A DNA stretch of 64,000 nt from Psammoneis japonica (GCA_008632985.1 QPGO01000007.1:434001-498000), one strand, 5' to 3'. Positions 18,763 to 43,110 are shown, counted from the first letter of the stretch. Numbers and translations: made by a program. The notes: generated by a model from the letters alone, not told the origin.

Positions 18763-19007
18763 AAATTTCAAAACAGCATGCGGGGTGCGATTGACAGCCG
18801 CATCAACTTATCACGCACCGCCAATCATCCTTTGAAACATTCTGACTTGGACTCCCCAGGCTTTGACGCGCTGGAGTCACAAAGGAATGAAAATTTCAAA
18901 GTGGTATGCGGGGTGCGATTGACAGCTGCATCAACCAATCACAACACCGCCAATCATCCTTTGAAACATTCTGACTTGGACTCCCCAGGCTTTGACGCCC
19001 TGGAGTC
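18763..19007 (+). repeat. Tandem direct repeat, 2 x ~128 bp
   Basis: TGCGGGGTGCGATTGACAGC...CCAATCATCCTTTGAAACATTCTGACTTGGACTCCCCAGGCTTTGACGC at 18779 and 18907. Confidence 0.9.
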
Positions 19008-20935: not shown

Positions 20936-23151
20936 ATGTACTCTCAGTATCAGCAATATCAGCAGAATGGCGCTACGACAACGTCGGGTCAGCACTGGAA
21001 CGGAACGTCGTGGGTATCGACCGCTGCTGCTGCTGCCACTCCGACTGCTACGAGTACGCAGTACACTCCCGCAGCATCGTCCTATGCCAGCAATCCCAAT
21101 GCAAACATTGTTGCAACCTACACACAGTATTACTACAAGTGGAAACAACGAGCGGATCAACAGCAACAGCTTGCTCAGTCGTTGCCCGAGGGCCAGGCCA
21201 AGGCGCAAGCCCTTTGTCAAGCGCAGTGGGCGACGTATTACGCCGAGCAGAGCACCCGTGCAGCACACCACTATAGCGGTTCTCAGGTTTTGCAAACACC
21301 ACCGCCTCTTCCACCGGCTCCTCCAGAACCTTCGACTGCTCCGCAGCAGGTGGTATCACAGCAGCCTTCAGTTGCGCCTCAGCCTGCTGCGGTGTCACAG
21401 CCACGCGCTGCTGCTGCAGCAGCTCAGGCCCCAGCGCCACAGTCGCAGCAGCAACAACACCGAAGCAAGTGGGATTCGAAACCACCCACGAATGATGCAC
21501 CTGGAGGGATGAAGGAGTATGTACACCGGTGTTTGGCGCGGTGCTCGACCGAAGAGGAAAAGCAGAAGGTACAGAAAGAGGTGGAGAAGATCATTACCAG
21601 AGCGATTCAGAACGGAACCATGCACACGATGGATTGGAACTCGTTGGAGTTAATCGAGATCAAGGGCAAGGATGAAACTAACAAGCGGAAGAATCATCAT
21701 GAGGATACGAGTTATTATGGACGGACTGCTGATTCTACAAGTGATTATTATGGACCGAGTGCAGCTCAAAAGACGGAAACTACAAACTATTATGGATCTG
21801 AGAATCAAGCGGATGGATATTATGGAAAGAGCACTGCGCAATCCAAGAAGAAGCAGAAGAAGAAGGCACGTCATGGTAAGAAGAATCATGGAAACAATCA
21901 TTACGGGAGATTGCCCAGTTACGATGAAGGATTAGCTGAGAATGATAGTTACTACGGTTTGAACAACACTGGAGAGGAAGATTTCATCGCGATGGAACGT
22001 TCTCCCAAGAGTAAAAAGAAGGTTATACCTTCGCCAGATGGCTTTGAACGTTCTTCGTTGGCGTTGAAGAAACGAGCGAATCGTTTTTCGGGAAGAGGCG
22101 GAGTGGCTCACGCTGCTGCGGTTCCCAAGTCGGCGGGACAGGAAGTGCAACGGTACATGGGAATGGGAGTGATTGGAGGCCAGCACAAGGCGTTGGAGGA
22201 GGCAGATTATGAACACTTGACGGTAAAGGGTACGTGTCGAACGTTGGAAAAGCAATATTTACGTCTCACCGCGCCACCAAAGGCAGAGTTGGTTCGTCCA
22301 CAGCCGATTTTGGAACAACACGTGCAGAATTTAAAACAAGAGTGGAGTCAAGCCAAAAAGCGAGACTATGCTTGGTTTTGTTCGCAATTCAAGGCGGTTC
22401 GACAGGATTTAACGGTACAGAGAATCAACAACGAATTCACTGTGGATGCGTATGAAACGCACGCAAGGATTGCGCTGCAAGAAGGTGACTTGAACGAGTA
22501 TAACCAGTGTCAAACACAGCTTAAGGAATTGTATGATAAACTTCGAGAGAACGAAAAGGCGTTGAAGAATCGTAACGAGTTTGTTGCATATCGTATCATT
22601 TATTACGTCTTTTTGATGGGAAACAAAAAGTATGAAGGCGGATCTTCTGACTTGCTCAAGATTATGTTGTCGCTCACCCCACATCAGCGAGACGATCCCG
22701 CTATTGTTCACGCATTGAAAGGTAAGTGAGAAAAGAATGACGTTTGCTTGTATTCCTAGTTGTTCCCACCCTTCTGACAATCTGTTTGTTTTCTTTGAAT
22801 CTCCATATTGTTGTAGTTCGCGCTTCAGTTGCTGAAAACGACTACCATGCTTTTTTCCAGCTGCAGGATTCTTGCCCTAATCCGGGTTCTTACCTTATGG
22901 ATTACATGGTGCCCAAGGTGCGCCATTGGGGTCTCCAGCGAATCTGTAAGGCGTATCGTCCGACACTTCCGGTCCTTTACGTATTGCAAGAGCTGGGTTT
23001 TGATCCAAAGGATCCAGCAGAGGTGGAAGAAGGCAAGCAGTGGCTCGCTAGCTCCGGCTGCGTGTTGAAGGACAACGAGGAAACATTGTCTTGCAAAGAT
23101 AGTGTCGTCCGTGAGAGTGACATGACGGCCAATACTTCTTCGCTTATTTGA
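20936..23151 (+). CDS. SAC3/GANP-domain protein, LENG8/THP3 type; intron 22722-22816
   Basis: VKGTCRTLEKQYLRLTAPP...VRPQ, SQFKAVRQDLTVQRI, YETHARIALQEGDLNEYNQCQ, EFVAYRIIY; GT-AG intron restores ALKVRAS. Confidence 0.9.
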
Positions 23152-24147: not shown

Positions 24148-25093
24148 ATGAGGGGGTGGACAACGTTTTTGATTTTGGGAAGTGTTGGGGCTTGGGTGCC
24201 TCCCACAACACGAACAGCAACAACCTGCTCTCACCACGCCGTTTTCGCAACGCATCTTTCCGCGCATGAAGTACATTGGCTGGATCAGGAAGCAAGAGAA
24301 GAATGCGAGCGCGAAGGTATTCCTCTTGGAGAATCCATTGCTGAAGGCGAGGTGGTTGTATGCCTACCCAACGTTGCCAGCCCAGACGATTGTAACAGAC
24401 TGTTTGAGGCCGGTCTCCAGGCGTGTGAGGGACGAGGCTCTGCAGCTCGTGGACGAAGTCGGTTTAGTGTTTCGGATCCAACGGCCTTTTCAAACGACGT
24501 GGTATTGGTATGCGAAGAAATACTGCTTAAAGTGATGGACTATTTGGACGAAAACATTCCCTCCGTGTACGAGACGCTATTCTTGCCTGGCGAACATTGG
24601 GCAGAGTGGCAACCTCTGAACGCACAGCTCGAGCAACCAACAGTACCGCCAGCTGATCATTTGACAGAAACCTGCGACAGTCTCCGAGAGCTTTACATGA
24701 TGGGCGAACTAGAATGGTCTGAAGGAGAACCAGCAATCAATATATATGAGACTAAGGGGTATTTCGGGTGTCACAAAGATCATCTCGCTCTCACAGTGTT
24801 GATCCCCTTGACATCACCAGATACGTTTTCGGGTGGTGGAACCGGCTTTTGGAAGGGAAATCGTGATGTAGATGAAAATCCAAAGGATCCCCTACGATTG
24901 TACTGAAACCTCCACCTGGATCAGCCCTTATCTTTGGGGGTGATGTCACACACTCCGGAATGCCGGTGGAAGACGGACTTCGCTCCGTTTTGTCTGTTCG
25001 TTTAGCACACGAACACCAGCTTCATCGGAGGATCGTCTCCATGGAATGTTAGCTCCTCCAAAGACAAGCGCAAACTTTAAGGGGACCATCTAG
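24148..25093 (+). CDS. 2OG-Fe(II) dioxygenase (prolyl-4-hydroxylase-like), probable plastid presequence; indels near 24890 and 24990
   Basis: HKD, LTVLIPL, FSGGGTGFW, downstream GSALIFGGDVTHSG...R; signal peptide ending VGA-W. The second copy at ~47095 shows the extra base that keeps frame. Confidence 0.8.
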
Positions 25094-25223
25094 TATTAAA
25101 TAAAAAAGAAATTGATGGATCGAACGTACTTGTAGCATTCACATCACCGCATGCGTGTTGATGCTATCCGTTTCCCCTGTTGCTCTGATTCTAGTTTCTT
25201 TTCTGCCGTTGAGGCTAGCTTTT

Positions 25224-26136
25224 CTAACGTTTCAACATTCGTAGACCGGTTGTTTTGTCACGTTCTTGCGCTGTCATGGGTGATGGCAAACCCGGAAATA
25301 AGAATGCGCAAACGTCAGTGTCAAGAAAGCGATGCGCATACATGGATATTTCTCGCTTTGAAGTGTCACATATCGTGTCTTTATGTTTCTGGTAAAGTTC
25401 TCCCGCAACGTCAAAACGCCCAACTATCAAAAGCTGAATAATTTGGGCCTTCTTTTCGCTACGTCTGCTCTTTTCGTATGCACCAAGAATTCACTCTCTG
25501 CGTCGGTCGGTTCTGGTTGAACGAGGGGTTTCCAAAGGGAAAATCCGATCCAAGGTCGTTCTTTAAGTCCCTTGAAGCTAACCACGCCTACTGGAGCTGG
25601 TGCTTGGGAGGAATAGATGATATCTTGAAATTCTCGATGCCCCGACGAGTCGTTTCTTTGATATCATCATCCGGCCGAACTACCAAAAAGGCAATCATCT
25701 CTTTTTTCGCCGTTGAGGTTGCTCCAGAGATATACGAAACAGCGAATCGTGGATCTATCCCAAAGTATTCCTGATCACGCCTTCTCTGTCTGTTGAGAGT
25801 TGCCGTTGGAATTCCGTCGCGAAAGATGCCAGGGATGTTCCTAATGTCAGTACCATAAAACACCAACGCAAGTACTCTTCCAGCGTCCAAGGATCGCAGC
25901 GCCCGGACGAATCGGTCATATACCATGGTTCCTGCGTACTCATCAGCGGTGACTTGCAACGTAGCACCAGTCAAACCCGCACTCTCGGCACAGTCCACGA
26001 AAGCGCGAGATTCGCAGGCTGCCTTCAAATCGTCAAAATTTAGTTCAGATGTATCATCCTTTAGCATCTTGGCAACGTAGCTAGCATAGAAAAAGGGAAT
26101 TCGTTCCCTCTTCAGAGCGTATACACAATTGCTCAT
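25224..26136 (-). CDS. PARP/ADP-ribosyltransferase-like protein, copy A (frameshift ~25590)
   Basis: ALVFYGT..RNIPGIFRDG...EYFG....AVSY...MIAFLV...HQ(I/L)P resembles the PARP catalytic [H/Y]GT...YF...Y scaffold. Confidence 0.55.
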
Positions 26137-26646
26137 TCTCGCTTCCTTCTGAACGGTTCCAGCTTGTTGACGGCAATCTGTCGGTGTCAAAATACTGTAG
26201 AAGATAGAAGATCATCGCTGTCGCTATCGCTACGACTTCAAACTTCAAACGCGATGTGCGATGTCTTCAGTCGTGCGTACTGCGTACGCGTTGCGCGAGC
26301 TGAAAAAAGAGGTCGTCACACCAGGGTAGACTACGGCAGTCAACGACACACAAAAAACGAGGTACTGCGGGCGGAGCGATGACAAGTGAAAGCCATCGAT
26401 TGCATTTTCATCGCACTCAAACCAACTTAAAGGATCAGCTTGACTGAATTTTGTTGAATCTCGTGCAATGCAGCGTCAAGGAGGGAGACACATTGTCCTC
26501 AGTAAAAGTGATCCTCCGTGTTCACAATCCTCCTGCGCAACTGCAAGAAGGAAAGAAAGCCGCTCAACATCCCAGACAAGTCGTCAGCACTCACAACATT
26601 GCCTTGCTCATCTGAATTAAATCACTGGTCATTCTTCCAAACCATG

Positions 26647-27581
26647 TCAATTGCCTGATGATGGCAATGCAGAAGTGCCAGATTCATGTGCACAGCTCCA
26701 TTCTGATGACTGCGGCCACCGCCATCTCCATCGAATCATCACGCGTGGCGCTTGTCGTCATGATTCAAATGGATCTCATCACATTGCATCTGCACCAGAC
26801 CACAGTTTGGAAATTTTTGTGCTTTTGAAAGTGTGCAGCATCCCATCCCAGGGCTGTCCCTGACAAGGCTTGACCGAGGGAACCATGGCAAACGAGAAGA
26901 GCACACTGGCCAGCATTCTTCTTTTCCCTCTTGACTCGGGACTCACGTTCAAGTTGATGGATTTCTCCCCAAATGCTGTCAGTTGCCTCCCACAGTTCTG
27001 ACAGAGGTTGATGTTTCCTTGGCTTGTCACCTGCATCATCATCAACTCCTCTGCTGTTCGAGTGATCATTCACAACAAATCGCTCTGGGCCACTGTCACC
27101 AACTTCCCAGGCTTGGAACGAGTCGGGGAACTGTTGTTCTGGTTCTTTCTTGTTGCATCCCTCCCATTTGCACAGACAAATTTCTCACAAATCTGCCAAC
27201 ACAATTTTGTTCAATGGAAGCTCACAATGCTTCTTCACAATCTCCAGCATTTGGCGAGCTCGAGTCAGTGGTGAAATGCACACGGCGCCAATCTTGTCGA
27301 TGTTTCGCAGGGCTTGCCGAGCAGCCTCTACAGCCTGAGTCTTTCCCAGATCTGTCAGTCTTGAAAAATCCAAAGACCCTTGAACAAACCCACCGGCATC
27401 TGCATCGGTTTCTCTGTGATGAAGGATTTAAAAGGAACGAGGCATTTCATTGGTGGCAGATTTCACACTGGGAGAAATAGAAAATTTGGCAAAAGCACCA
27501 GAGTTTGCTCTGTCCGGTCTTGAAAGGGTTTCCAACAAAACGCAAATGTGGGAGCTGCTTTGGTTGCTGCGCCAACCCAAC
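26647..27581 (-). pseudogene. Hypermutated, 5'-truncated copy of the histidine-phosphatase gene
   Basis: Colinear with 48807-49730, with systematic CG>TG/CA and TA>TG/CA changes; RHGE region (CGTCACGGAGAA) reads CATCACAGAGAA. Confidence 0.9.
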
Positions 27582-28095
27582 AGCACTCATCATCTTTCAA
27601 CTTTCAACCACCATGACTGATGGGAGTTGAGCTTGATGTCTTCATGATGCAGGCACTCTGTGCAGGGGTGCGGTGTGTCAGCCTTTGCATGTGAGCTCTT
27701 GGTCACTTCAGTGTGAAGATCTGTTGCTCCAGCAAGTCTCAATTGCTGTCCGGTTTGCTGTGGTTTTGTGAATGACCAGCCAGCTTTGTTCTGGTCTCAT
27801 CCATTCTGATCTCCTTTGTGGACCACACTGAAGACGTGTCTTTTTGGTCCCTCTTTTCTCACAAGGCCTTTGGGGCCTCTTCTCACTTCTTGTGGATTTT
27901 CCTGTTTGTGAGGATCAGATCACCTTGACAGCTTGGCAGCTGTTCAGACCTGCATGCTTTAGACTGTCGTTGCTTGTTGCCCCAGCTCATGCTGACATTG
28001 TCTGGCTCATTTCTGTGGTTGTGAGCCCAAGTGTCGTCATTGCTTTGAATTGAATCTGTTGAATTGACAAGAAGCAAAACCTCTGATTTTGTCAA

Positions 28096-31000
28096 ATGAG
28101 CAATCATTCAGCAGGATCAAGCAATCCTTTGTTTGGGGATGCAGACCCTGAACTGTCAAAGAATGAAACATCAGAGGACTCAAGTGAGGAGTCTGAGGAA
28201 AAATCTCAAGGACACTTCTCGGCCTCTCAAGGAGGGATCAAGCAATGCCACTGCAGTGGTTGTTCCTCAAGTTGGCGGGGTTGTTGACAATGTCACAGGG
28301 GCTGGCAGTCCACAAGTTGTGTTGATCCCCACACTGTGGTGCATCATCCACATTGTCAACATCCGATTTCATTCTGTCACTCTGCAACAATTGCACATGT
28401 CATGCTGTCAGAAAGGTTTGCAGTCTAAGATTGACACCAACAAGGACAGCAAGGTGACTATCGCCATTGGTCAGACCAACTCTGTTGACCAGCATCTTCT
28501 CATGAGCAGCATGGATTTGGTGTTCCATGTCCAGAGGAGAGATCCAAGGACAAGGGCACTTGAAGAGTGGAATGTTTCAATGAACTGAGGTTCATTTGAC
28601 CTTCAAGAAGTTAAAGACCATGTTCAATGCTTGCTCTCAATGGGTGATCAATGTGATGAGCAGAAGCTGCAATGGCCAGGAGAGTTCTTTCTTGACTTGA
28701 TCGGGATTGCTCCACTTGGTGACATCCAGAAGTGTGCCAATGGACCTGTGCATGGGCCTGTTGTCTTTAAGCTCATCATGAACGAATTGCATTCATCAAC
28801 TGTGTCGGCTCTCCACTTGGTGTTGGACAAGCTCAAGGCTGTGAAACTCAAGGAAGAACCAGGTGAAACATTGAGAGCTGCACTTCGAAGGCAGTTGAAC
28901 TTTGCAGGCATCTTAAAGGTCATCACAAGTTGCCCAAAGATGCCCCTTCGATCCTTTGCAGTGGAATCGTGACATCGACTGTCAAGCCATTCCGGATTCA
29001 GTTTGTGGCTGTCTTCAATGAAGAGTTGATGTGTGTGGCAAACTTGATGCATGTGCCAACAAGTCACACACCAGTTTGGTTGATCAAAAAGAGTGGATGC
29101 CTTTGAATCAAAGCAAGTCCAGTTGCATCACATTTCTAAATTGTGCAGACCATTGCATTTGCCACAAGTGTGGTCAATGAGGTCACATCCATCCCAACTG
29201 CCCTCAGATTGCTGACAACAACAGTGATCCTGGATGTGGCAGTTTACGTGGCAAAGGTGTTGGTGGTCAATGCGGTGGATGTGAAGACAATTGTGGACCA
29301 GGATGTGAAGGTTGGGGTGATGATCACACTCCTTGGCCACGTCAAACTCCAAGAGGGACCCTCACAGGATTCTCCTCCAAAATGTAGAGAATTTCACATG
29401 CAAGTCTCCAATGGTGCAACCAAGCATTGGTGCAGCAGATGTGGTTGTTGGACCAATCACACTGCTGCCACCAATCACCAAGCTGCCGATGCCAATGCTC
29501 AGAGCACTGCTGCCACTCAAGACCAATTTGAATGCCGTGCGTTGAATGCTGGCAAGTGCCATGTTGCTTGGGACCAGTCCATGCAAGATTCTAGCACTGT
29601 TTCTGATTCTCAAGATGGTGCTTTGGCCAGGAACACATTGAATTGGATCTTTGTGGGTTGTGCCTCAGTGCACAACTTGTCAAACTGGTGGGCCAGTGGA
29701 TTGTTGGTTTGCTTTTCATAAAGGGCCCTGCTCTCTTTAAAACCAATTGTTGGAGGGAAACCAACATTAAAAAAGACTTGGATCAAGTGCCGTTGGAAGT
29801 GCACCCAGAAGTCATGTGTGTTTTGTTGGCACACATGATGTCCATGTGGTCTTTTGCAATGCTCTGCCACATGACTCATGGGCATCATCCTCACTTGTTC
29901 CTGCAAACACCAGGATTTGTTCAGAGGGATGTTGAGACACTCAAGAAAAAAAAAAACACAAGATCCTGAAGTTTTGTCCAAGCAACAATTGTTCCAGAAG
30001 ACTCAACAAACAACATTTTGTTCAATGTTCTGTCCTGAACTTGTTCATGTGTTGGTGGTTGTTTTGACATTTGTTGGGATTCATCAAGCACTGTGGCCAA
30101 GGTCTTCCAAGCAACATCACATGACTCTTCAAGATGAATCAGTTTGCGACATCACAAACCAAGATTGGATCTTCTGACTTCAAACATTGTGTTGCACATG
30201 CTCACGTGCCATTTTGTGAACATTGACTTTTGCAAGAACAGATTGATCATCTTCCAATGTCATTCTCATCTCCTTGTGACAAGCAATTTGAGGTTCTTTT
30301 TGATTCTGGAGCAAATGTCACTTTTGCTTTTGACAAAGAAGATTTTGCACCTGGGGCATTCAAGCTGTTCAACATCACCTGCTGTTGGAGGTTATGTCAA
30401 CATCAAGGGCATGAGCGTTGTTGAGTGGATGGTGTGTTTGATGATGCTGGATGCAAACAACACATCTGCGCTGAGTGCCCCCACATCCTGACTTCTCCTG
30501 TGAAGTTGTTGAGTGTCACTTGTCATGGGCACAACAAGAATGGCAGTGGCTTGGGTTGCAGGCTCAATGTTGACACCTCAAAAGACCATGCTTTCTTTCA
30601 TTAGCATGGCAGTGGCGCCATTGCAATGCCTTGTCATGAAACCAACAGAGTGCCCATTGCAACAGGAAGGAATCCATTTTTGGCAGTGACCTGGAAGCAA
30701 AGCATCTGCACATGTGTGATGGACAAATTCAATCAAAATGTGTCATCAAAACAAAAGAGACTGTTGCAGTGGCATTTTTGCTTGGGTCATCTTGGCTTTG
30801 ATCATGTCAAGTGGTTAGCCAGGAAAGGACACCTTGGGCATGCTGCAAGAGACTGTTGGCTCTGCTGCTGTTGACAGTCCCAAGTGTGGCACATGTCAAC
30901 ATGGTTGAATGACTTGTCGTCCAACCAGAGCTGCACAAACTGAGAAGGTTCCCAGTTGGAATCAATCTCTCAATGTTCTTCATCCTGGACAAGTGGTTGC

Positions 31001-33915
31001 TGCAGACCAGCATGTGTCCTGCATTCAAGGTCATCCATTCAAATCTTGTGAGAAGACCAAAAAAGCAGACAAATGTGGTGGCAGAACTGTTTTTGTTGAT
31101 GTTGCCTCTGGCAAGGTGTCAGCATGTCATCAAGTTTCATCTAGCACTTTCAAGACCATCAAGAGCAAAATGGCTTTTGAGAGGGAGGCTGCTTCTGCTG
31201 GCATTTCCATTCAAGCTCGTCAATCAGATGACACAATTTTTGTGAGCAACAAATTCCTCGAGGAACTCAAGGAGAATGGTCAGGGTGGGAAGCTTGCTGG
31301 TGTTGGGGCACATCATCAGAACACCATTGCAGAGCAAGCAATTTGCAATGTTGCCAAAAGAGCCCACACTGTGATGCTCCATGCTGGAGTTTGGTGGCCA
31401 GATGCAGCAGAGATGGATTTGTGGCCCATGGCCATGAGTCATTCTGTCCATTTGTAGAACTTGACCCCATGAATGGATTTCAATGGATTGTGTCCCAAAG
31501 AAGTCTTCATGGGAGTGAAAGTTTCTTCAAGTTCAACCCTCACAAATTTGGCTGTTCTTTGGGGGATGCCCGACCTGCGTGTTGGACCCAACATTGCAAG
31601 ACAGCAAGAAAATGCCATGTTGGAAGGCCCAACGTTGTCACAGTCAGTTTGTGGGTTGTTTGCCTGTCCATGCAAGCAATGTTGGTTTGATCCAAAACCT
31701 CAAGAGTGGTTTGATGTTGCCCCAATTCCATGTTGTCTGTGACAACTGGTTTGAGATGGTTCATTCAGACAATGAGCGCAGGCCACCAAGGAATTGGTTG
31801 GACCTCCTCACCACTTCAAGACATTGTGTGGACACTGATGATGGTTTGGCATTGCCTCCGTCATTAAATGATTGGCTTGCTGCTGAAGAATTGAATGATT
31901 GGCATGTGCAACAGGAAGAGCAATGGAGGCAACAATGAGTGCAAGCATCAGAACCAATGAAACAGAGGGAGAGGATGCCTGGATCATCTTCTTAAGGACA
32001 ATCCAATGCTCCCAGATGGTTGAGTGTTCCACTTTCAAGCAATGTTTTGCTGGATCTTCCATTGTCTCTAGATTTTGTCCACAATGAAGTCACGCCTCCA
32101 AGCATTGAATCCCCTTTTGCTCCATCTGACATTGCAGAGGCTCAAGAGGAAGACTCCAGAGTTGCTGGGTCTCCAGAATTGCCATTGGTTGCCAACAATG
32201 ATGGCCATTTTCCCAAAGCTCTAGACAAGTTTTGGCTCCATTCTAGTTGCAGGACAGCAGAGTTTGTTGGAACACATGCAATGTTTGCTGACCTTGATGG
32301 TGGCAGTGTCAATTCTGTGCATCCATTGTCAGCATTTTTGTTGGATTCTGTTGCAAGTGAGAAGACTTGTGGTCCTGATGCTTCTTTGCACCATGAAGCA
32401 ATGGCAGCACCACACACAAAGAGTTCAAGAAAGCCATGCATTCCAAGATCAACAATTTGATGTGATGCAATTCATTCACTCTGGTGCTGCACAAGTTGGT
32501 GCCATCTGATGCCAATGTTCTGCATGGCACTTTGGCATTTAAGTTCAAGAGACACCCTGACAGATGTCTCAAGAAATTCAAAGCACAATTTTGGGTGCAA
32601 GGGAACCATCAACAAGAGGGGGTTGATTTCTTTGAGACTTGTGCTCCAGTGGTCCAGCAGAGTGCAGTTTGGTTGGCTCATGAGTCCCTTTGTGTGGCAT
32701 GGATTGGCATCTTGCCAAGCAGATCACTCTCTTGCTTTTGCTCAGACATTGAAAATGACACACACATTGAATTGCCCAAGCTCTTTGAGACAGAACACAA
32801 AGGAGACCATGCACTGAAGCTTGACAAGAGGTTGCATGGGTTGCATCAAGCCATGACTGCTTGGTTCCAGCATTTGCCCAAGGGTCTGGAAGAGGTTGGA
32901 TCACACTCCAGTGAGAGTGATCCTGTGTGTTGATGATTGTTTGTTCTTTGCAAAGGATCTCACAAAAATTGACAACACAACAAGTCAACTCAAGACAAAC
33001 AGATGCAAACTTGATGTTGAGGACAATGCAAGTTGTTTTCTTGGCATCAACATTGACAGAGAAAATGAGGCTGGGACCGTCAATCTCACTCAAAAGGGAC
33101 CTGTCGAGAAGATCATTGCTGCCATGAACATGGAGGGTTGTCACATGAAGGCTGCTCCAGCAAGCTCCACTCCATCAGCCACCAATGCTGACGGTCCTGA
33201 GTGAGTCAAATTGTGGAGCTGCACAAGTGTTTTTGGCATGATGCTCTGTTTGGCTTCCAATGCAAGTGGCCTGATGTCCAACATGCAGTCCACAGCTGTG
33301 CCAGTTCATGCACAATCCCAAGAAGAGCCACAAGAAAGTGGTCTGGGCATCTTCAAGGCACAAAGGACCACAGTGTGACTTTTGCTGTCTCTTGCAACTC
33401 AAGGTTGGATTGCCATTGCAGTGCAGTTCTTGCCAGACATTGGAGCTGCAAAGACCCACAAGATCCCACATGCATCAAAAGTCAGTCTGGTCATTTGTTG
33501 ACCATTGGCAGCAACCCATTGATTTGGGCTTCCAAGCTGCAGACCAAGGTTGCTTTGTCTGCACTTGAGGTGGAGCATGTTGCCCTGTCTCAGGTGATGA
33601 GAGTTCCACCACCCATGAAACGGCTCATCAAGGAGGTTGCCTCTTTGATGAGCATCAATTGGGACAACAAAAAGTTGTTCCATTCTGCCATTTTCAAGGA
33701 TGGCAAAACAGTGCTTTGGCCATGATGCTGAGGATGACTCCACATGCAAAACATGTTGGGATCAAGCATCACTTCTTCAAGTCTCACATTTTGAAACCTG
33801 GCTTTGTGATTCACACTCAGAAGATTGCCAGTGAAGAGCAGTGGGCAGATGTCTTGACTGAGGGTTCAGTGCAGGACAAGTTTGAGCATTTGCGGAAGAA
33901 GATCATGGGGTGGCA
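28096..33915 (+). mobile_element. Ty1/copia LTR retrotransposon (CoDi-like), dead and hypermutated; LTRs not found
   Basis: Copia domain order: gag (GPVVFKLIM...VKLKEEPGE; WCSRCGCWTNH ~29428), protease FDSGAN (~30298), GAG-pre-integrase WHFCLGHLGF (~30770), integrase (ADQHVS...FVDVASG...HHQN), RT (AFKFKR.PD, VDDCL ~32929), RNase H (WASKLQT.VALS..E.EHVALS...KKIMGW). Confidence 0.92.
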
Positions 33916-34214
33916 GGTTGTGGTGGATTCATTTTTTATGTTGATTCAAGTTCAAATGCATGTGTTGCATGTGAAAATGGGGCAATGGCAATCAGGCATG
34001 ACAACTGGGGTTGTTGCATCTTTGCATGTGGTTTTGCATCACTGAGTTGTTTTACAAAGTTTGCTCCTGCAAGAGGATGGGCTGGTTGGAAGAGGACAGA
34101 CCAGTTTTTCTTGCTCTGCAGGCTCTGAGCAAACCATGTGCATGCTGCACAGGTGAGGCAGTTGTTGTTCTTGCTGCATTGCAAGCACAGCATTGTGCGT
34201 TTCTTGAAGTTCCA

Positions 34215-35300
34215 CCAAGACAACAACTGGTCATTTTGTTGAGTTGAAGGACACCACAAAAAAAGACCTCCAGAAGACTGTTGTGCCAACCAACAAAACA
34301 GAAAGAAGAAGTCTGGCAGGGTTAGAAGGACAAAGCCAATTTTCAGTGATCTGGCACTGCTGCAGCAGATGAAGCTGACCAAGTGTTGCAGCAAGCCCAC
34401 TGAGATCCATCCCAGACCCAACATGAGTGTGCATCTTCAGACAGTTTCTCTCTGAAGTTAAGACTGCAGCACAAAGCATGCCTGCCTCAGAGTGTTTGGC
34501 AAAACAGCTGCTCAGATTGCACTGGCATGCACCTGCACATGGATGGTGCAGAAGACTTTGTCCAAGGCTTGCAACTCCAAGGAAAGGCAGAGGCTGATGA
34601 CTTGCCAATCAATGTCTTGAATGGCAAACAAAGGCTGCAGAGACATGTGCACAAAAACCATTCATGCCGATGCAGCTTCAGATCCCAGAGTTGGCGCAAA
34701 CAGCTGTGCTGCAAAGATTTTTTATTCTGCTGTCCTGCAGGAGCAGCATGACAACAGACTTGCATGCTCACACCCATTGGGAGAGGGTGATGATCAACAA
34801 AACCCAGGCAGCACAAATGCAAAGGTCTTTTTGCACTGGTTGCAGCCACTTCTTCTTTGTTTGTTGCACTTGGAGGTCTTCAAATTTTGTTGCACTTTCT
34901 TCACAAATTCTGCACTTTTGCAGACTGAGCCTGCATGTGGCATGCTCTTGGTTGGCCAGCATTGAAAGACAATGATGCCCCCACTGATGCTGCTCTCACT
35001 GAAGCACAAGCAAGGTTTGCCTTGGTGACAGTGGGCACATCAAGGCTGCCCATTGGCCATGCCATTCACAAGGAACAGCTGCTGCCTCTCTGTCTTGGCA
35101 GCTCTAAACTGAAGAGTGTGTTTCTGGACCAACATGCCTTTTGATCTTCCAACCAGATGTGGAAGCCATTGGGTGTTGGAGTTTGGCATGGACCAAATTA
35201 CAAAGAGCATTGCCAATCGTTGCACAAAGGGCTGCACTGCACAGAGCACAGAGGAGAGCTTGTTGATCCAAGCTGGTGACTCCTGTCTCAGCCAATTGTG
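34215..35300 (+). pseudogene. Hypermutated partial copy of the MYND gene (5' half plus upstream)
   Basis: AAAGACCTCCAGAAGAC, CCCAGACCCAACATGAGTGTG, GACATGTGCACAAAA and GCTCTCACTGAAGCACAAG align with 40410-41470. Confidence 0.85.
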
Positions 35301-35314
35301 TTCTTGTCAGTCAA

Positions 35315-35980
35315 ATTTGATGGAAAATCGGCTTCGCCAATTTTGTTTGTTTGTTTGTTTGATCATCAGAGAGAGAGAGAGAGAGAGAGAGAGACTTTCT
35401 AAGTGCACCCAAATGACCCACCATCAAGTGAACTGCAGAAATTGTGGAAAGGTGCAATGGCCAACCCTCTCTGCTCACAACCCCTCTCAAACCTTTGAAA
35501 CCATGCCTGACAATGCATCGGCCTTGACCGCATGATTGTCTGCTGCAGTCACTCTCACAACCTTGGAAATCTCCTTTCCTGCTGCACACTCCGAGTCTCC
35601 CATGCCCCCCAGTTTCGTCCCATTGGATTGCAAACATGGAGGCCACTGAGAGAGAGAGAGAGAGAGAGAGACAACAACTTGACTTGAATCGATTCAACCA
35701 ACCTGTCTGTCCTTCTTTGGATCTTTTTAACACAACAACGCCCACCGCACGACAACAACAACAGCCAGCTGCTGATGAAGCCACCGCAAAAGTCTCATTC
35801 TCCCAACTTCGGCCAATGTTGTTGTGCCTGCTGTTCACTGAAATGGTTGGACAAACATCCGATTGAGCAGCTCCACCTTAGCTGCTTGCATTGCCATTGT
35901 TTGTCACATTTGACGGAAAATTGGCTTTGCCAATTTTGATCATTTGAGAGAGAGAGAGAGAGAGACTTTCTAAGTGCACA
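35315..35980 (+). repeat. Duplicated ~70-90 bp unit containing (GA)n microsatellites
   Basis: ATTTGA.GGAAAAT.GGCTT.GCCAATTTT...(GA)nCTTTCTAAGTGCAC at ~35315-35410 and ~35908-35980; third (GA)n at ~35648. Confidence 0.8.
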
Positions 35981-37389
35981 AGCAGTGTGCATTGGCACAG
36001 CAACATGTTTGGTTTTTGGAGACAATGGCATTGCAGGGTCCAGGGCTCTTGGTGTGGCAAAAAAGGTCAATCATGATTCAGCTGCCCACTGCCAGAGTGT
36101 TGTGCAGCTGTCATTTGCAAAAGAGCCAGAGACAAGGTCTTGGTGAGAGTGCTGTGGCAAGCCTCCCAGGCAAACATTGTGGTGGTGGGGGGGGGGGGGG
36201 GGCAAGTGTTTGGAGAGCACAGCTTGGCAGCAAAAGAAGATGGACAAAAATGGCAGAGGTTGTTCTTGATGTGTGAGTCTGTGAGGTGCAAAGTGGTGGG
36301 TTGAAATGACAAGCACAAGCTGGTGGTGCACAAGAGAGCATTTCATGGATTGCTGGCTCCATGCACAACTTCTCTCTGCATGCCTCTTGTGGAAGGACAG
36401 ACAGAAGGGAAAAAGTGCGCTCACTTGGTGTGGTGCTGTTGTTGTTGAAATTGCCAGCAGGCAGCAGACCAGAAGAGATCATGCAAGCATGCTTGCACAT
36501 TGTCCATGCAGAGAGCATGTGTGGCTGCACACACCAGTGGGAGCACTGAAGACTTTTTGGGAGTTGCTGCAAAAGTTTGTTGCAGCACTTTTCAACAGCA
36601 GAGGCTCTTGCCATCAAGTGTGCATCACAAGATAAAAGAAACTGTGCTCATGCAAAAACATGGGCTGAGATGCTTGAGCACCACCCAGTGTTGCTTCTCC
36701 AGCCCACTTCAGCCAGGGCCATCATGCTGCAGAGGAAGTTGTGTCCTGCAGAAAAATGCAATTGTCAAAATCCAACTGCAACATGCCATGAAAGATCTCT
36801 GGCAAAGCTGAGTTAGAAGTGAGTTTGAAGGTGCAATGAAACAAGGCAACAGAAGCCCACAAAAACAATGTGGCAGTTGCTGCTGTCTTTCTCATCCCTG
36901 GCCAGAATTTTCATTGATGTTGACACAATCCCATGCAAAGAGCATTTTAAGTGAGTGCAAATGCATTGTCTTCAACACTTTGTGTGTCCTGAACAAACAG
37001 ATCATGCAAAAATGGGACAGGGCTGTGTTTGCCAATGTGGTTTGGCAAAAGCCTGTCAGCTTGCATGCAGCCTGGCTTGTGTCCTGTGTGACTGGGAGAA
37101 GAGTTCATTGCACAACACTCTGGACTGTCTCTCAGCTCCACCAGTCTGTTGCTGGGCATGCTTTTTCTCTGACCCTCTTGCACTGTGGTCGTCCTTGCTG
37201 GGCCACAGAGGGGCACTCTGCACAGCTCCTCCATCTGCTTCTCCTTCCCCTTTCCCTTTTTGCTGCCTTGCCACTCTTCCTCTCCTCCTTCTGTTGTGTG
37301 GTTTCATGTCTCCCTGCTGTTGGGTGGTGGCTCTCTGGCTGGAGATCCACATTGGGGTCTCAAGAATGAGCCAGAGACCCAAGTCTGGG

Positions 37390-37443
37390 TTCCCCAGATC
37401 TGGATCCCCAGCTGGAGGTCTGGTGTGCTCATGGCCTGCACCA

Positions 37444-37474
<31 letters not shown>

Positions 37475-37925
37475 AGAGCTTGAGCAAGAGTGCACTGGAC
37501 ACTGGAAGAAGAGAGTCAGAGAGTGACAGAGGGCAATCAACCTGTTGATTGTTTGGCGCAGATTTGAGACCAATGAGGGGCAGCGGTCTGTGCTCCCCCC
37601 TTGTTTGAGTGGGGGGTTGTCCTCCAAGATCTGCCATGCCTCTGCTTCACTTGTCAAGATTGTGGAGGCAGTGTGCAAGTTTGTGAGCACTGTTCAAACT
37701 GCAGCAAGCTCATTCCTTTCTTTCTTCAATGTTGTGCTTCATGTTGGTGAGTTTAGAGAGTGAGAGTTTTTGCTTGCAGCCCACCAGCCCCGATTCCCCC
37801 AGATCGGGATCCCTGGCTTGAGGTCTGATGCTCATGGCCTGCACCACAACCAACCAGAGAGCTTGAGCAAGAGTGCATCAGGCACTAAAATGAGAGAGTC
37901 AGAGATCAACAGAGGGCAATCGACC
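37390..37925 (+). repeat. Dispersed direct repeat (~140 bp x2) with (CCAG)n tract
   Basis: TTCCCCAGATC.GGATCCC...GCTCATGGCCTGCACCAC...AGAGAGCTTGAGCAAGAGTGCA...AGAGGGCAATC.ACC at ~37390-37543 and ~37794-37925. Confidence 0.8.
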
Positions 37926-38135
37926 CACAAAGATCTTGGATCTTCCGACTGAGAACGGCGTTGCCGTGTGCCGTGCGTCTGTTGCGTTGCGCGTTGCGCT
38001 GCTGCGCGTGCCGGTGCAGCACACGGTGCGTGCGGCACGGTGCGGCATCTTTGCGGCGCACCTTGTCTTTGCGGCGCAATCTGCCTGGAGACCTTGCTCC
38101 CAGCTGCCGAATCGAAAAATTTGCGACATTGCAAA

Positions 38136-39828
38136 ATGGACAGCTTGCCGAGTTCATTTTTGGCATGCCAGTGCAAAGTTGTGTAGATCTGTGCATACAA
38201 GTTTCTACGTTGGTTTGTGCTGAAATGGCAGTTGGACCCATCAGCTCATTCAAATTTGTACAGCGACCCACCCGTGCATGCCGCACTCACAATGGTGATG
38301 ATACGACGGCATTGTTTGCACTCTGACGCTGTCTTGCCACATCGCATCTCCCTTGCCACGGAGTTTTAGAACATCACTGACAACTGGTTCAATAAAATGA
38401 CCGGTCGTGACAGAGTTGCAGGGGTTTTGTTTCGCCATGAAAAGACGCCGTTGGACCCATCAACACGACGTATGTACAATGGTCGGTGTTGGAATTGTGA
38501 CGATGCATTGGCCCCATTTGAAGTGTCTTTAGCGGCATTGTGACGTTAGCATGCGGCATGGAAGACTCAGCCGTTCCCAATGTGGTGGCATGACGGTGGA
38601 GTTGGCTGGAGCCCAAGGAGGACTTGTCAACATGACGCACCGGTGCGACGTGCAATGGTTGGTGTTGGAATTGTGATGATGTGTTGGCCCCATTTGAAGT
38701 GTCTTTAGCGGCATTTTATGACGTTGGCATGCGGCATGGAACACTCAGCAGTTCCCAATGTGGTGGCATGACGGTGGAGTTGGCTGGAGCCCAAGGAGGA
38801 CTTGTCAACTTGACGCACCGGTGCGACGTGCAATGGTCGGTGTTGGAACTGTGACGATGTGTTGGCCCCATTTGAAGTGTCTTTAGTGGCATTTTATGAC
38901 GTCAGCATGCGGTGTGGAATGCTCAGCAGTTCCCAATGTGGTGGCATGACGGTGGAGTTAGCTGGAGCCCAAGGAGGACTTACCTTGAATGTGTTTCTGT
39001 GGATGCAAGAAAAGCAAATGACACATTGGCCCCATTGGAAGTTACTTGAGCAGCATTGTGGCAAACACAACCGGCACGGATAACTGAGAAGAGCTTAAAT
39101 TGGTGGCATGACAGTGAATTTAGCCTGAGCCCAAGGATGGCTGTCTCTGAAAATGTTGCTCTCTGTGGCAGGAACTGCGAGTGGTTGCTTTGTTGTCCTT
39201 TTCTCCATGCAGCAGCAGTTTAGATGGCTCTGCTTTGTGGGCACAAACAAGCAATGCTTCTGAAATGATCACTGGTTGTGGATGTTAACCAGTCACACGA
39301 CAAATCTATGACTGAAGTGGAAGTGCTGGAGCGTTGTCAAGTCGGCGGCATTGTCATCTTGTTGGACGAGCTGGAAGTCTCGTCATTTGCTCTTCTGCTG
39401 CAGAGAACATTGGTGGAATTGAACAACAACTTGATAGAGAAGACATCAGCAATGTTGGTGGAGGAGTTGGCTGTGGTTGTGATCTGAGAATGATTCAAAG
39501 TGGGCGACGCAGACGACCTGACAACACGCAAACAGCTGTGCAGTCCATTGAAGCTACTGACCAGCTTTGAAGGCGATTTATTTTGTCTGTTGATAGACCA
39601 ATCATCTATATGCTATGTGACAATAACGTGTTGGCATTTTTACTCAGCATTCACAGTGTATTAGCAACGCCATTAGCTCTGTCGACACCTCTTCGTGCTT
39701 CGTGTTATTCTCGTGTTGGAGCTCGCAGAGTTCGTGATTTTCGTACGCATGTATGAGAAACTGTCGAATGTAGAAACATATTGAATTTCTACTGGCATAC
39801 CAAAAATGAAACTCGGCAAGCTGTCCAT
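38136..39828. mobile_element. Putative non-autonomous DNA transposon (~1.7 kb) with ~37-bp terminal inverted repeats
   Basis: ATGGACAGCTTGCCGAGTTCATTTTTGGCATGCCAGT (38136-38172) is the near-perfect reverse complement of ACTGGCATACCAAAAATGAAACTCGGCAAGCTGTCCAT (39791-39828); no clear TSD. Confidence 0.7.
38470..39140 (+). repeat. Tandem repeat, ~177-bp unit, 3 good copies + 1 degenerate
   Basis: CAATGGT.GGTGTTGGAA at 38477, 38653, 38831; GGTGGCATGAC.GTG.A.TT.GC..GAGCCCAAGGA recurs four times. Confidence 0.92.
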
Positions 39829-40479
39829 AATTCCGAATCCCCGCACAATCATCGCGCGGCGAGTCGAGAAACGACCCTTGTCACCCTCCAAGATCGTCTT
39901 TGCGACGCGGCCAACATCCTCTGGTGCAATTCAAGGTGCAGGCGTTCTTTCTACTTCGATTAAGAAAAGATATGATGCACGAGAAATGACAAGAAATCCT
40001 TATTTTCAAAGGAAATTGCCTTCTCGTGACAGCAACTCATGCCGACGCATCGCAAGATTTCAACAAAAAATGACCTTTTTGGATGATTACACCGCCTTTC
40101 CTCACAAACAAAACGTCATATAGCTCTTAATAATGATAATAATCTGATTGGTTTGTTATTTCATGTCACTTACAGACCTTCGGTTGTCGAAACAGTAGCA
40201 TTTGCTCATTTGAAGCGAAAAATGAAGCACTCAGAGACCTCGCACGTGCTTTCATCGTGAAAAAATTCGAGCTATTTGTTTTTATAAATTAATTTGCGAT
40301 TCGCAAATTTTGCGTTTCAGTAGCCAGGCACCAGCAGGCAGTTTGTGAGTGGTCGCAGTGTCCATTGTCGCAGGTTTGAAGTTCGCAAATACCATAGTAG
40401 TTCGTGTTGTTGACAACAACCGACCAGATTGTGGATTCGAAGGACATTAATCTTCCCGAAAGACCTCCAGAGGACCACC

Positions 40480-42159
40480 ATGCCGACCAACAAAAAGAAA
40501 AAGTCCGGCAGCAAAAGGGGCAAAGCAAATTTTCAGCGATCCGCCACAGTGGTATTTGGAGAGACAGAAGTTAGGTCGGAACTACCCGAGTGTTACGGCG
40601 AACCCGCTGAGATCCGTCCTAGACCCAACATGAGTGTGTCTTCCGAAAGATTCTCTGAAATGAAGTCTGCAGTACAAAACATGCCTGCTTCAGAACGTTC
40701 CGCAACAGCCGCTCGGATTGCACTAGCATACGATTACATGGATGATGTGGAAGACTTAGTCCGAAGCCTGCAAGTCCGAGGAATGGCAGAGACCGACGAC
40801 TTACCGATCGACGTCTTGATTGCGAATAAAGATTACATGGACATGTGCACAAAACTCATTCACGCCAATGCAATTTCAGATCATAGAGTTGGCATCAACA
40901 GCTACATTGCAAAGTTTTTTCCACTGCCATCTTGTTGGAGCCACGTGACAGACTTGCATCCGTTGGGAGGTGAGAATCAAACAAACTTGGGCAATGTAAC
41001 TGCAAAGGCCTTTGTTGCACTGCTTGCGACCGCGTCTTTGTTGATGGTGACTGGGAGTCTTCAACAAATGTCACTGCGCATTGTTCACGAACTCCACATT
41101 CACGCAGACCGAGGCGACGACTGGCTTGATTGGTCAGTGTTGAAGGACAACGATGCATGCGAAATTGCTCTCACTGAAGCGCAAGTGAGGTTTGCGCTAG
41201 CGACTGTGGGTATCAAGGTAGCCCGTCGACTGTACCGTCAACGGGAAGAACGACAGTTTTATCCTGGCAGCCCTAAACTGAAGAGTGCGTTCTTGCTTGA
41301 TACCATTGAAAGACTTGCTCAAGACCAATGTACCTTTGGACCTTCCTTCCAGATGGAAGCGGTTGGGTGTTGGAATTTGGCGTGGGCCGCATCACAAAGT
41401 GTCGCCAAGCGCGGTGTTCATCCGCTCGAGGGAGCGGCAGAGTGTTTGTACCAAATGCGGCGTTGCATGGAGCTCGCTGATTCAGAAGAGAACGACTTTC
41501 TGAGGGCAGAAGCACGCATTGATGCTGCAATGTGTTTGGTTTTGGGAGGCGATGGTATTGTAGGGTACAAGGTTCTCGGTGGCGAAAAAGGTCAATCGCA
41601 GCGCAACTATCGATCGCTGAAGAACCAGAGACGAAACCTTGGAGAGAGCACTATAGCAAACGACCTTCTTCTTGGATTTAAAGTAGGCGGGGATACGAAG
41701 GAGATCCGTTTAGCAAGTATGGAGTATGAAAAGTGTCGAATCAATAAGGGAATTCCATCTACAACATTGGAGGCGGGCGAAAGCCTTCTAGTTGCTTGGT
41801 GGGAGGTCAACAGGTTGTGGAATGAGGCTATTTTGGGGCCTTACGACTCAATCAAACAATGGGGTCACGAGTGCTTTGTCTTTGGCGAAGCCGCTGGTTG
41901 GGATGTTGTTGTTTCCTTTTTGGAGAAGACTCGCAATTACGCAAGAGGAATGTATGCCAACGCACCCAATCCACCTGGACTTCCAGGCAAACGTGACAAG
42001 GGGGGTGAGTACTCGGAGAGTATAACTTGTGCCACCTGCCGAAAGATGGACAAAAATAACAGAACTTGTTCTCAATGTAAGTCGGTGACCTATTGTTCAC
42101 GCGATTGCCAAGTGGCGGACTGGAAAAAGCATAAGCTGGTGTGCAAGTCTGTCTTGTAG
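40480..42159 (+). CDS. MYND zinc-finger protein (C-terminal zf-MYND)
   Basis: Intact ORF ending CATC...CSQCKSVTYCSRDCQVADWKKHKLVC; basic N-terminus (KKKKSGSKR). Confidence 0.88.
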   Translation: MPTNKKKKSGSKRGKANFQRSATVVFGETEVRSELPECYGEPAEIRPRPNMSVSSERFSEMKSAVQNMPASERSATAARIALAYDYMDDVEDLVRSLQVRGMAETDDLPIDVLIANKDYMDMCTKLIHANAISDHRVGINSYIAKFFPLPSCWSHVTDLHPLGGENQTNLGNVTAKAFVALLATASLLMVTGSLQQMSLRIVHELHIHADRGDDWLDWSVLKDNDACEIALTEAQVRFALATVGIKVARRLYRQREERQFYPGSPKLKSAFLLDTIERLAQDQCTFGPSFQMEAVGCWNLAWAASQSVAKRGVHPLEGAAECLYQMRRCMELADSEENDFLRAEARIDAAMCLVLGGDGIVGYKVLGGEKGQSQRNYRSLKNQRRNLGESTIANDLLLGFKVGGDTKEIRLASMEYEKCRINKGIPSTTLEAGESLLVAWWEVNRLWNEAILGPYDSIKQWGHECFVFGEAAGWDVVVSFLEKTRNYARGMYANAPNPPGLPGKRDKGGEYSESITCATCRKMDKNNRTCSQCKSVTYCSRDCQVADWKKHKLVCKSVL

Positions 42160-42339
42160 ATTCGCTCTATGGATAATCTCTCGAACGAACGAACGAACGA
42201 ACGAACGAACAGAATCGAGAAATAGAGGGAAAGAGAGAGAGAGAGTGGGTCCTCAGTTGATCATCCTGGAGGAATATTGATTTTCGTGTTGCCGGGTGCG
42301 GTGGGCCGGAGCGACTGACTTCAATCAACTGGGAGATAT

Positions 42340-43110
42340 GAAGTATCGGACAAGTTTTGGCAACGTGGATGCCAATGCCTTTCTTGCTCTTCTTGCGACC
42401 GCTTCGTTGCTTTTGTCGACTGGGAGCGCATACTTGTCATTGCAAGTTGTCCACGAGCTCCGCACTCATACCAATAGAGCCTACTGTACGATTGGCTCGA
42501 CTGGTCTCTATTGGAAAAGCGTGATGTGGTGTCCGATTCTGTGCCTGTCAACGAGGCGCAGGTCAGATTCGCCCCAGCGGCAGTGGGCATCAAGGCAGCA
42601 CGTCATATTGAATCTATATCGCCAGCGGGAAGCCAGGGCGTCCTTCTCAGGAAGCACTAAACTTGAGTGCGGTTCCTTCCTCGAGTCTGTGGAAAGACTG
42701 TCTCAAGACCAACATGCCTGTCTTAAGACCAATGTACCTACGGTTCATCCTTCAGATAGAAGCTGTTGGATATTGTAGGTCGGGATGGGTCGCGTCACAA
42801 GGCGTTGCCAAGGGTGGTGTCCATCCTCTCGAAGAAGCAGCAGAGTAATTGTTTCAAATGAGGCCTTGCACCAATCTTGCTGATTCGGAAGACAATAACT
42901 CTCTGAATGCAGGAGCCCGCATGGAAGCCGCTATGTTTAGTTTTGGGAGACACCGACGCGACAAGGGGCACAAGTGTTCGCAGAGCTTTACATCATGTGC
43001 CTCTTGTAGACGGTAGACAGAAGGAACAAAAGTGCTCTCGGTGTTACTCGATATGTTTTTGTTCTCGAGACTGTCAGGTGGCAGACGGGAAGAAACGCAG
43101 CTGGTGTGCG
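42340..43110 (+). pseudogene. Deleted/frameshifted tandem copy of the MYND gene (not TpA/CpG-depleted)
   Basis: AFLALLATASLL, GVHPLE, KCSRCYSICFCSRDCQVAD match the upstream gene; stops and large deletions; CG and TA retained. Confidence 0.85.

Follow-up and report, generated by a model that had tools for sequence, protein, structure and literature searches.

How can a region of a diatom genome lose nearly all of its CG and TA dinucleotides while its base composition stays the same? This question is raised by a DNA segment of Psammoneis japonica (GCA_008632985.1, QPGO01000007.1:434001-498000), whose full length of 64,000 nucleotides we refer to as the window; all positions are counted from its first letter. 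The window was scanned in 2-kb steps and then at finer resolution, with expected CG and TA counts derived from base composition. In the 2-kb intervals 28001 to 36001 the observed/expected (o/e) ratio is as low as 0.06-0.19 for CG and 0.03-0.08 for TA, TG (1.71-1.86) and CA (1.71-2.04) are overrepresented, and the GC content is steady at 0.46-0.51. The flanks are ordinary in the same scan, with CG at about 0.8-1.1 and TA at about 0.45-0.7. These counts confirm the original prediction for this locus, according to which CG and TA nearly vanish and TG/CA dominate between normal flanks. A core from 27600 to 37600 holds 65 CG (561 expected) and 38 TA (691 expected), compared with 2484 CG (2642 expected) and 1811 TA (3195 expected) in the 46.6 kb of the window that are unaffected. 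Pyrimidine-purine (YpR) steps have the same density in the core and in unaffected DNA (236.7 and 237.8 per kb). Therefore, they have not been lost; it is their identity that has been swapped by transitions. The GC content is likewise the same (0.474 in the core, 0.476 in normal DNA), and the loss of TA with a matching gain of CpA plus TpG is the footprint present in the main domain.

This main hypermutated domain, as defined by TA depletion, extends from 26400 to 39400, and the core mentioned above is the part of it in which CG is near-absent as well. An extent of 26400 to 39600 had been proposed for both dinucleotides. It holds for TA (about 26.4 to 39.4 kb) but not for CG, the depletion of which is narrower and runs from about 26.5 kb, where it is partial, or from 27.6 kb to 37.6 kb. 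It is important to note that the domain noticed first is only the largest of three affected patches in the window, which measure about 0.8, 3 and 13 kb. The smallest one (10879-11706) is TA-free apart from one survivor at 11585 and encloses a CG-free interval at 10987-11476. In the intermediate one (15823-18900, about 3.1 kb) TA is depleted, with roughly a dozen remaining, and a CG-depleted core (about 16010-17800) again lies inside the TA-depleted interval. The borders of all three patches are sharp, to about 100-250 bp.

To read the direction of the changes, we compared the window with itself and found two internal duplicate pairs; the comparison was also made after recoding into purines and pyrimidines, which hides transitions. 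In pair 1, the segment 24818-27581 is a copy of the intact paralogous segment 47024-49730, which serves as the unmutated reference. Hypermutation of the copy sets in at about 26.35 kb, the part to the left being unmutated, and the identity of 86% rises to 93% in the purine/pyrimidine code. In pair 2, a hypermutated MYND-finger pseudocopy (34156-36374, plus strand) is colinear with 40347-42182, where an intact MYND-finger gene (40480-42159, plus strand, 559 aa) provides the unmutated reference; here recoding lifts the identity to 86% and lengthens the alignment. The intact copies of both pairs are protein-coding, and the duplicates are copies of ordinary genes and not transposons. The strings initially quoted as examples are all present, one of them starting at 49145 rather than at 49146. 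Inside the patch (26251-27581) pair 1 has kept only 7 of 40 TA, 14 being now TG and 12 CA, and 35 of 75 CG (24 TG, 9 CA), whereas outside the patch 48 of 60 TA and 74 of 87 CG are kept. In pair 2, a single TA out of 21 and none of the 49 CG are left. For pair 1, 26 of the 33 altered TA are accounted for by TA>TG/CA, and for pair 2 18 of 20; the pseudocopy of the latter also carries indels and transversions, as true pseudogenes do. Independently of the duplicates, a decayed Ty1/copia element in the main domain has Cys or His at all five tyrosine columns of its reverse transcriptase (RT) that are conserved in related copia elements, e.g. ETYAP>ETCAP, LYGL>LHGL and YVDD>CVDD. Such replacements are expected from TAY>TGY/CAY (Y, pyrimidine) and, together with the intact paralogues, they settle the direction as TA>TG/CA and CG>TG/CA, just as it had been deduced from the duplicates.

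The adenine change is confined to a specific context, in line with the original proposal. Inside the patch, A>G is found at 26 of 80 adenines in a TpA context but at 37 of 587 other adenines (P=3e-10), and outside the patch the corresponding values are 9/123 and 28/617 (P=0.25). Transitions outside CG and TA are not raised in the left margin (59/1043 inside vs 53/1114 outside), and neither are transversions (58/1274 inside vs 59/1414 outside), which speaks against a general mutator. Runs tests revealed no strand-coordinated (kataegis-like) clusters, the TG and CA outcomes being balanced (P 0.31-0.87).

A closer inspection of the sequence neighbourhood revealed that the adenine target is 5′-TAY-3′. 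The two large cores retain 42 TA, namely 29 YTAR, 8 YTAY, 4 RTAR and 1 RTAY (R, purine), whereas normal DNA has 329, 459, 462 and 561 of these classes, respectively (chi-square P=3e-15). Accordingly, survival is about 50 times better for YTAR, the sole class without TA followed by a pyrimidine on either strand, than for RTAY. Ancestor-descendant counts give a per-site A conversion of 34/68 for TAY and 12/64 for TAR (P=2e-4), and the outcome follows a strand rule, since YTAY turns into TG at a ratio of 12:1 and RTAR into CA at 8:1 (20 of 22 sites, P=1e-4). In four core segments TAC and TAT are reduced to 0.00-0.05 of normal, compared with 0.05-0.30 for TAA and TAG. In each of the three margins TAT has the lowest value. 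Two of them keep the trinucleotide ordering, whereas the left one (26300-27600) departs from it, with TAC (0.20) no lower than TAG (0.17). In pair 2, adenines that precede a pyrimidine but lack a 5′ T are also raised (59/218 vs 25/244, P=3e-6), an effect that is absent in pair 1 (P=0.73). In the interval 33000-37600 only, the AT o/e ratio is down to 0.71-0.83 (0.71-0.75 where the DNA is most heavily hit) and the GC o/e ratio amounts to 1.25-1.37, which is consistent with a weaker A>G change at such adenines.

Has a comparable process been described? Initially, no known genome-defence pathway seemed to produce a near-saturating A>G change at TpA, but in a preprint on the chlorarachniophyte Bigelowiella natans (Mettrop et al., bioRxiv 10.64898/2026.01.13.699255, April 2026) integrated viral DNA is reported to undergo A>G/T>C hypermutation that is restricted to TpA. 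According to this preprint, 231 of 302 nuclear mutations in Illumina-sequenced mutation-accumulation lines fell into two integrated viral regions, and 230 of these 231 were A>G/T>C, all at TpA. The rate was about 6e-7 per site per generation, in only some of the lines, and the regional mutation rate was elevated about 1000-fold. The same source lists 124 TpA-poor, CpA+TpG-rich clusters in the B. natans genome that are enriched for RT and DDE domains, and proposes an ADAT2 homologue as the enzyme. Both systems share the restriction of A>G/T>C to TpA, the confinement to discrete foreign or silent regions with normal neighbours, and the long-term loss of TpA with a gain of CpA plus TpG, RT and transposase domains being enriched in the B. 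natans clusters. They differ in the host, a rhizarian as opposed to a diatom (stramenopile), and in the target, which is giant-virus and virophage inserts there and a copia element plus adjacent dead host-gene copies here. The depletion reported in the preprint (Rho 0.45) is milder than that in P. japonica, where TA is near-saturated at 3-8% of expectation, and the 3′-pyrimidine rule shown here is not reported in the preprint text. Furthermore, a rate was measured in B. natans, whereas the diatom process is known from its sequence footprint alone. Our literature search yielded no report of such hypermutation in diatoms, and the text of Maumus 2009 (PMC2806351) has 0 occurrences of 'hypermut' and 'deaminat'. 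From its sequence features, we file the TA component as a putative diatom member of the B. natans-type TpA hypermutation, refined to TAY and overlaid on a probable methyl-CpG decay. It is thus not unprecedented; new are the diatom host, the retrotransposon target, the TAY rule and the saturation.

Basecalling errors on heavily modified DNA could in principle imitate such a pattern, and the domain sequence was found in a single public run (X1) from one sample and one study, the platform and library type of which are not on record; no RNA run is listed for it. Of the words sampled from the domain, 90% occur in X1. Contigs that were independently assembled from it show 0-1 differences over 28837-29712, 29684-30955, 33817-35335 and 36187-37437, and their word depth of 60-69 equals that of the single-copy flanks. 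Clean 31-mer contigs at full depth argue against an artefact of noisy reads, and so do the indels and transversions in the affected genes. Additional evidence was obtained from metagenome contigs, which we scanned with the decayed RT, thereby retrieving 79 copia loci. One of these loci (L049, 3085 bp, GC 0.57) has 0 TA at a CG o/e ratio of 0.92 and a 727-codon open frame without tyrosine, in which LHGL and CVDD take the place of motifs that have kept their Tyr in the relative L053. None of the 57 TA of L053 is kept in L049, where 23 appear as CA and 13 as TG. L049 has the appearance of a fully saturated case in which the process is limited to TA, and indicates that TA loss without CG loss occurs elsewhere in nature. 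A second locus (L059) is partly affected (TA 0.21, CG 0.54), and a third one (L001; CG 0.30, TA 0.32), with long open reading frames (ORFs) and 3 of 5 conserved Tyr kept, is ambiguous. In view of these independent TA-free or TA-poor copia contigs with Tyr>Cys/His replacements, and of the same mutation type in the Illumina data of B. natans, the initial worry about basecalling has become very hard to maintain.

The mutated sequences also tell where and on which molecule the change occurred. The left border of the main domain lies between 26332, the last intact TAY (e.g. GTAC, ATAC), and 26464, the first converted TA. This interval of about 130 bp falls inside the colinear gene duplicate of pair 1, whose left part (24818-26330) is unmutated; CG conversion in this margin starts at about 26519 and is partial. 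The paralogous regions 40347-42182 and 47024-49730 are untouched, and only the copies within the domain are mutated. A 178-bp tandem repeat with 2.8 copies (38477-38981) shows one ancestral TA as TA, TG and CA in its three units, and as the units differ, conversion must have taken place in situ after the duplication. The border inside a duplicate, the dead host-gene copies, the tandem array and the unmutated paralogues rule out, for the main domain, a scenario in which the RNA or cDNA of an element was hyperedited in ADAR or APOBEC style and then inserted. Such editing before integration would be compatible with the two smaller patches, which are discrete and sharply bordered, and with L049, a lone copia contig. 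Yet it does not explain why pseudogenes unrelated to transposable elements (TEs) are hit, why both strands are affected symmetrically and why the margins are graded and component-specific, and we consider it highly improbable. Editing of retroelements by APOBEC or ADAR resembles the present case as a local, context-specific hypermutation in defence; it is, however, strand-biased and remains within the replicating element, whereas here the strand-symmetric changes cross element borders into host-gene copies and the tandem array.

The finding that only the in-domain copy is mutated also argues against a homology- or duplication-triggered process akin to fungal repeat-induced point mutation (RIP). 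Both alignable segments of the domain are in fact duplicates, and many diatoms possess DNMT4, a relative of fungal RID (PMC9998398). Nevertheless, one copy per pair is mutated, and only in its in-domain part, while TpA is destroyed instead of created and the GC content is unchanged; a RIP-like trigger is thus extremely unlikely. Ascomycete RIP similarly kills repeated or foreign DNA in place through dense context-specific transitions, with some leakage to the neighbours, but it acts as C>T mainly at CpA, creates TpA, lowers the GC content, and needs a duplication of which both copies are hit. The opposite effect on TpA had been pointed out from the beginning and stands. The change was made in place on DNA and is dependent on position, which supports the earlier view that a regional process operates at the DNA level, with silenced or foreign DNA at its centre.

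Does a single process account for the loss of both dinucleotides? At six out of six borders the TA-free zone outreaches the CG-free zone that it encloses, by about 0.1 to 1.8 kb. In the right margin (37700-39400), TAY amounts to 0.22-0.28 and TAR to 0.42-0.75 of the normal frequency; among the NCG trinucleotides, by contrast, only TCG is reduced (0.48), and the other three are near normal (0.92-1.25). We also noticed that TG exceeds CA by about 1.6 to 1 in this margin (e.g. 59 vs 27 per 400 bp), the two being balanced elsewhere; this could be a strand bias or a matter of ancestral composition. The context of CpG conversion is mild, as WCG (W, A or T) was changed at 60 of 157 sites and SCG (S, C or G) at 25 of 114 (P=0.005), and the contexts of surviving CpG differ less than twofold. 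In the left margin (26500-27581), converted and unconverted CpG alternate with a best period of 190 bp, the power of which was reached in 0 of 5000 label permutations, and TA conversion is near-complete over the same stretch. The spacing of about 190 bp is nucleosome-like and suggests a phased footprint of methylation or deamination. TEs of a centric diatom are reported with 84% CpG methylation (PMC11842555), and linker-phased DNMT5 methylation with other marine algae (PMC9998398). Based on the period and on the CpG methylation described for DNMT5 algae and for TEs of a centric diatom, we read the CpG component as probable methyl-CpG decay. Our reading is that it represents a second, superimposed process, separable from the TA component because it is absent in the right margin and in L049. 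The methyl-CpG decay of methylated TEs in vertebrates and plants is similar in that CG>TG/CA is confined to silenced TEs and shows little flanking specificity, as is the case here, and the TCG hypermutation described for basidiomycete TEs (PMC3318451) recalls the mild preference for a 5′ A or T. Neither of these affects TpA, whereas in P. japonica the CpG loss lies inside a wider zone of TA loss.

The co-localization of the two signatures could alternatively be due to error-prone patch repair, in which T:G mismatches arising from the deamination of 5-methylcytosine (5mC) recruit a Pol-eta-like polymerase that causes A>G at WA, as happens in the second phase of somatic hypermutation. Pol-eta does have a hotspot for A>G at TA, and the combination of AID and Pol-eta is a further example of local context-specific hypermutation, used for diversification. 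However, the WA motif includes AA, and AA sites are not raised (13/208 inside vs 11/229 outside, P=0.53). Moreover, TA loss continues for 1-1.8 kb where all CpG loss has ended, and it is unaccompanied in L049 and, going by the preprint, in B. natans. A near-complete conversion of TAY with unchanged transversions and other transitions is also unlike a low-fidelity polymerase. This idea, which had been among the initial suggestions, fits poorly and we regard it as very improbable. Biased T:G mismatch repair of the Vsr/VSP type was rejected by reasoning alone, as it would create CpG from TpG and not remove TpA.

Another possibility is a single chromatin-targeted deaminase of the ADAT2/TadA type with dual activity, which would attack A in TAY and C in (W)CG in a RIP-like defence. 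Both signatures occur in the same patches, the conversion of WCG exceeds that of SCG, and amphioxus ADAT2 is reported to deaminate both C and A in DNA, with 5′-TCG-3′ as the cytosine context (PMC10354150). Yet the footprints of the two changes are not the same, as seen from the nested zones at all six borders and from the TA loss without CG loss in the right margin and in L049. In B. natans, a C>T component is missing from the viral-region mutations given in the preprint (230 of 231 are A>G/T>C). The periodic loss of CpG over a stretch of near-complete TA conversion points to an additional requirement at CpG, such as methylation. All in all, a single dual enzyme appears rather unlikely.

The lesion might also reside in the pyrimidine. 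As both strands are hit equally and coordinated runs are missing, the sequence alone cannot assign the lesion to a strand, and the motif may equally be written as 5′-RTA-3′ with T>C. In this case, the substrates of a TET/JBP-like 5-methylpyrimidine oxidase or modifier would be the T of RTA and the 5mC of CG, and mispairing of their oxidised forms would give T>C and C>T. Base J and 5-hydroxymethyluracil (5hmU) occur at TpA in other protists, and 5-formyluracil is mutagenic. Such a mechanism would also explain why TA loss reaches further, given that T carries a 5-methyl group from the outset, whereas C has to be methylated first. On the other hand, 5hmU:A pairs are only weakly miscoding, and the literature that we searched holds no precedent for a near-saturating T>C by such a route. 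We therefore deem a pyrimidine lesion improbable.

As a whole, the data show patches that were mutated in place, on DNA, through two context-specific transition processes, the first of which is probably of the B. natans kind. Both components drive every self-complementary YpR step towards TG/CA and leave other substitutions and the GC content unchanged. The first one changes adenine to guanine at TpA irrespective of the strand, with a strong preference for 5′-TAY-3′ (equivalent to 5′-RTA-3′ on the other strand), a slower conversion of TAR and a weak effect on other adenines before a pyrimidine in the most exposed part, and it reaches 0.1-1.8 kb further out at every border. It may represent a defence-like mutator with local targeting, directed at silent or foreign chromatin. 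The second component converts CpG to TpG/CpA with little flanking preference, most likely by deamination of 5mC in CpG-methylated, nucleosome-phased chromatin on TEs. As originally proposed, our best guess for the first component is a silencing-coupled A:T>G:C mutator, which may be a deaminase. The most likely chemistry would be the conversion of adenine to hypoxanthine by a sequence-selective DNA deaminase of the TadA/ADAT type, and yet, although this type is the leading candidate for the enzyme, the assignment is tentative and on balance doubtful. TadA/ADAT2-ADAT3 and the engineered adenine base editors share the chemistry that gives A>G in DNA. In the natural tRNA substrate of ADAT the target A has a U on its 5′ side, and bacterial TadA reads U-A-C. 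We know of no link between TadA/ADAT2-ADAT3 and chromatin targeting.

Several points weigh against this explanation. The weak effect on adenines before a pyrimidine comes from one old paralogue pair. The strand rule was not reproduced in the comparison of L049 with L053 (YTAY, 5 TG and 8 CA; RTAR, 3 TG and 1 CA), a pair that is 30% diverged and in which L049 is saturated. Run X1 may be the source sample of the window, and its support is hence not fully independent. Silenced chromatin and 5mC at this locus are what we infer. ADAR and the ADAT-dependent mRNA editing in fungi prefer a 3′ G and not a 3′ pyrimidine. No natural ADAT2 other than that of amphioxus is known to edit DNA, and the adenine context preferred by the amphioxus enzyme is GAA and not TAY (PMC10354150). 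CpG loss accompanies TA loss in the cores of the P. japonica patches, whereas the B. natans preprint describes no G:C>A:T component. Its text, as far as available, contains neither 'CpG', 'trinucleotide' nor 'context' and does not mention diatoms, so that the mechanism is only presumably shared.

What did the process hit? The main domain had been called transposon-rich, which is true for one decayed copia element; the rest comprises two host-gene pseudocopies, a repeat insertion and the tandem array. The coding remnants of the Ty1/copia element (28600-33999, plus strand) were recognised by tblastn and Pfam. They consist of a 5′ remnant (28600-28899, plus strand), a tblastn match without domain call that is probably gag by its position, and of protease, integrase, RT and RNase H (30200-33999, plus strand), with Pfam matches to GAG-pre-integrase (30605-30874) and RVT_2 (32466-33204). 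A pair of long terminal repeats was not detected in the purine/pyrimidine-coded self-comparison. The mutated copy of pair 1 contains a decayed histidine-phosphatase-like frame (26765-27184, minus strand) with a weak match to His_Phos_1. The MYND-finger pseudocopy is split by an insertion (35225-35954), whose high summed word depth in run X1 (2260) identifies it as a dispersed repeat; its TA content is at core level (3 in 730 bp), and its CG is partly lost (14 in 730 bp). A search with the intact MYND protein gave 14 relatives, and a second partial copy of this family is found downstream of the intact gene (40916-41582 vs 42281-42983). About 1 kb of the main domain is without recognised feature. 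Pfam searches on the ORFs of the 3-kb patch, of 36.0-40.6 kb and of the copia region retrieved only RVT_2, gag_pre-integrs and the weak His_Phos_1 match. Neither Pfam nor the copia comparison revealed any similarity in the 3-kb patch, and in the purine/pyrimidine self-comparison nothing similar to the two smaller patches exceeded the shuffled background of about 108 bits.

The genes in the flanks are ordinary eukaryotic ones. Among the named relatives of an M18 aminopeptidase encoded there, the best are from diatoms, namely Detonula (63%), Thalassiosira (59%), and Cyclotella and Nitzschia (52-54%). Directly to the left of the 3-kb patch lie ORFs with a TIR domain and ankyrin repeats (14015-15653, minus strand), and further to the left, two unannotated ORFs (4133-5164 and 5918-6853) form a local tandem pair of diverged duplicates (4289-4881 vs 6140-6729). 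The region 39400-40350, between the main domain and the intact MYND gene, has normal CG and TA. Its summed word depth in X1 is very high (1577-2353) and marks it as a dispersed repeat; it may be a young insertion or a boundary. In a SAC3/GANP-like gene, contigs of a second run (X2) skip 95 bases with GT..AG ends (22719-22815), so that X2 is probably RNA and the skipped segment an intron. X2 gives no cover over 28.0-36.0 kb, which we do not take as a sign of silence.

To date, the 2026 chlorarachniophyte preprint is the only report of TpA-targeted A:T>G:C hypermutation. The saturated footprint on a diatom retrotransposon and its neighbours suggests that the process is widespread among algae of the SAR group (stramenopiles, alveolates and rhizarians), on transposons as well as integrated viruses. 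The TAY and strand rules provide a biochemical fingerprint for the screening of candidate deaminases or other enzymes, and a link to chromatin structure is provided by the nested CG/TA zones and the periodicity of about 190 bp. For genome annotation it is relevant that such patches lose all Tyr codons and the TAA and TAG stops, which gives rise to long false ORFs, and that standard RIP indices, which seek a gain of TpA, would miss them. It is conceivable, if speculative, that diatoms, and perhaps SAR protists in general, possess a chromatin-targeted defence based on a TadA/ADAT-derived DNA adenine deaminase that reads 5′-TAY-3′ and could also deaminate C in WCG. If true, this would be a natural two-base 'base editor' in the role that RIP has in fungi, and it would erase every tyrosine codon and both TA-containing stop codons in silenced foreign DNA.

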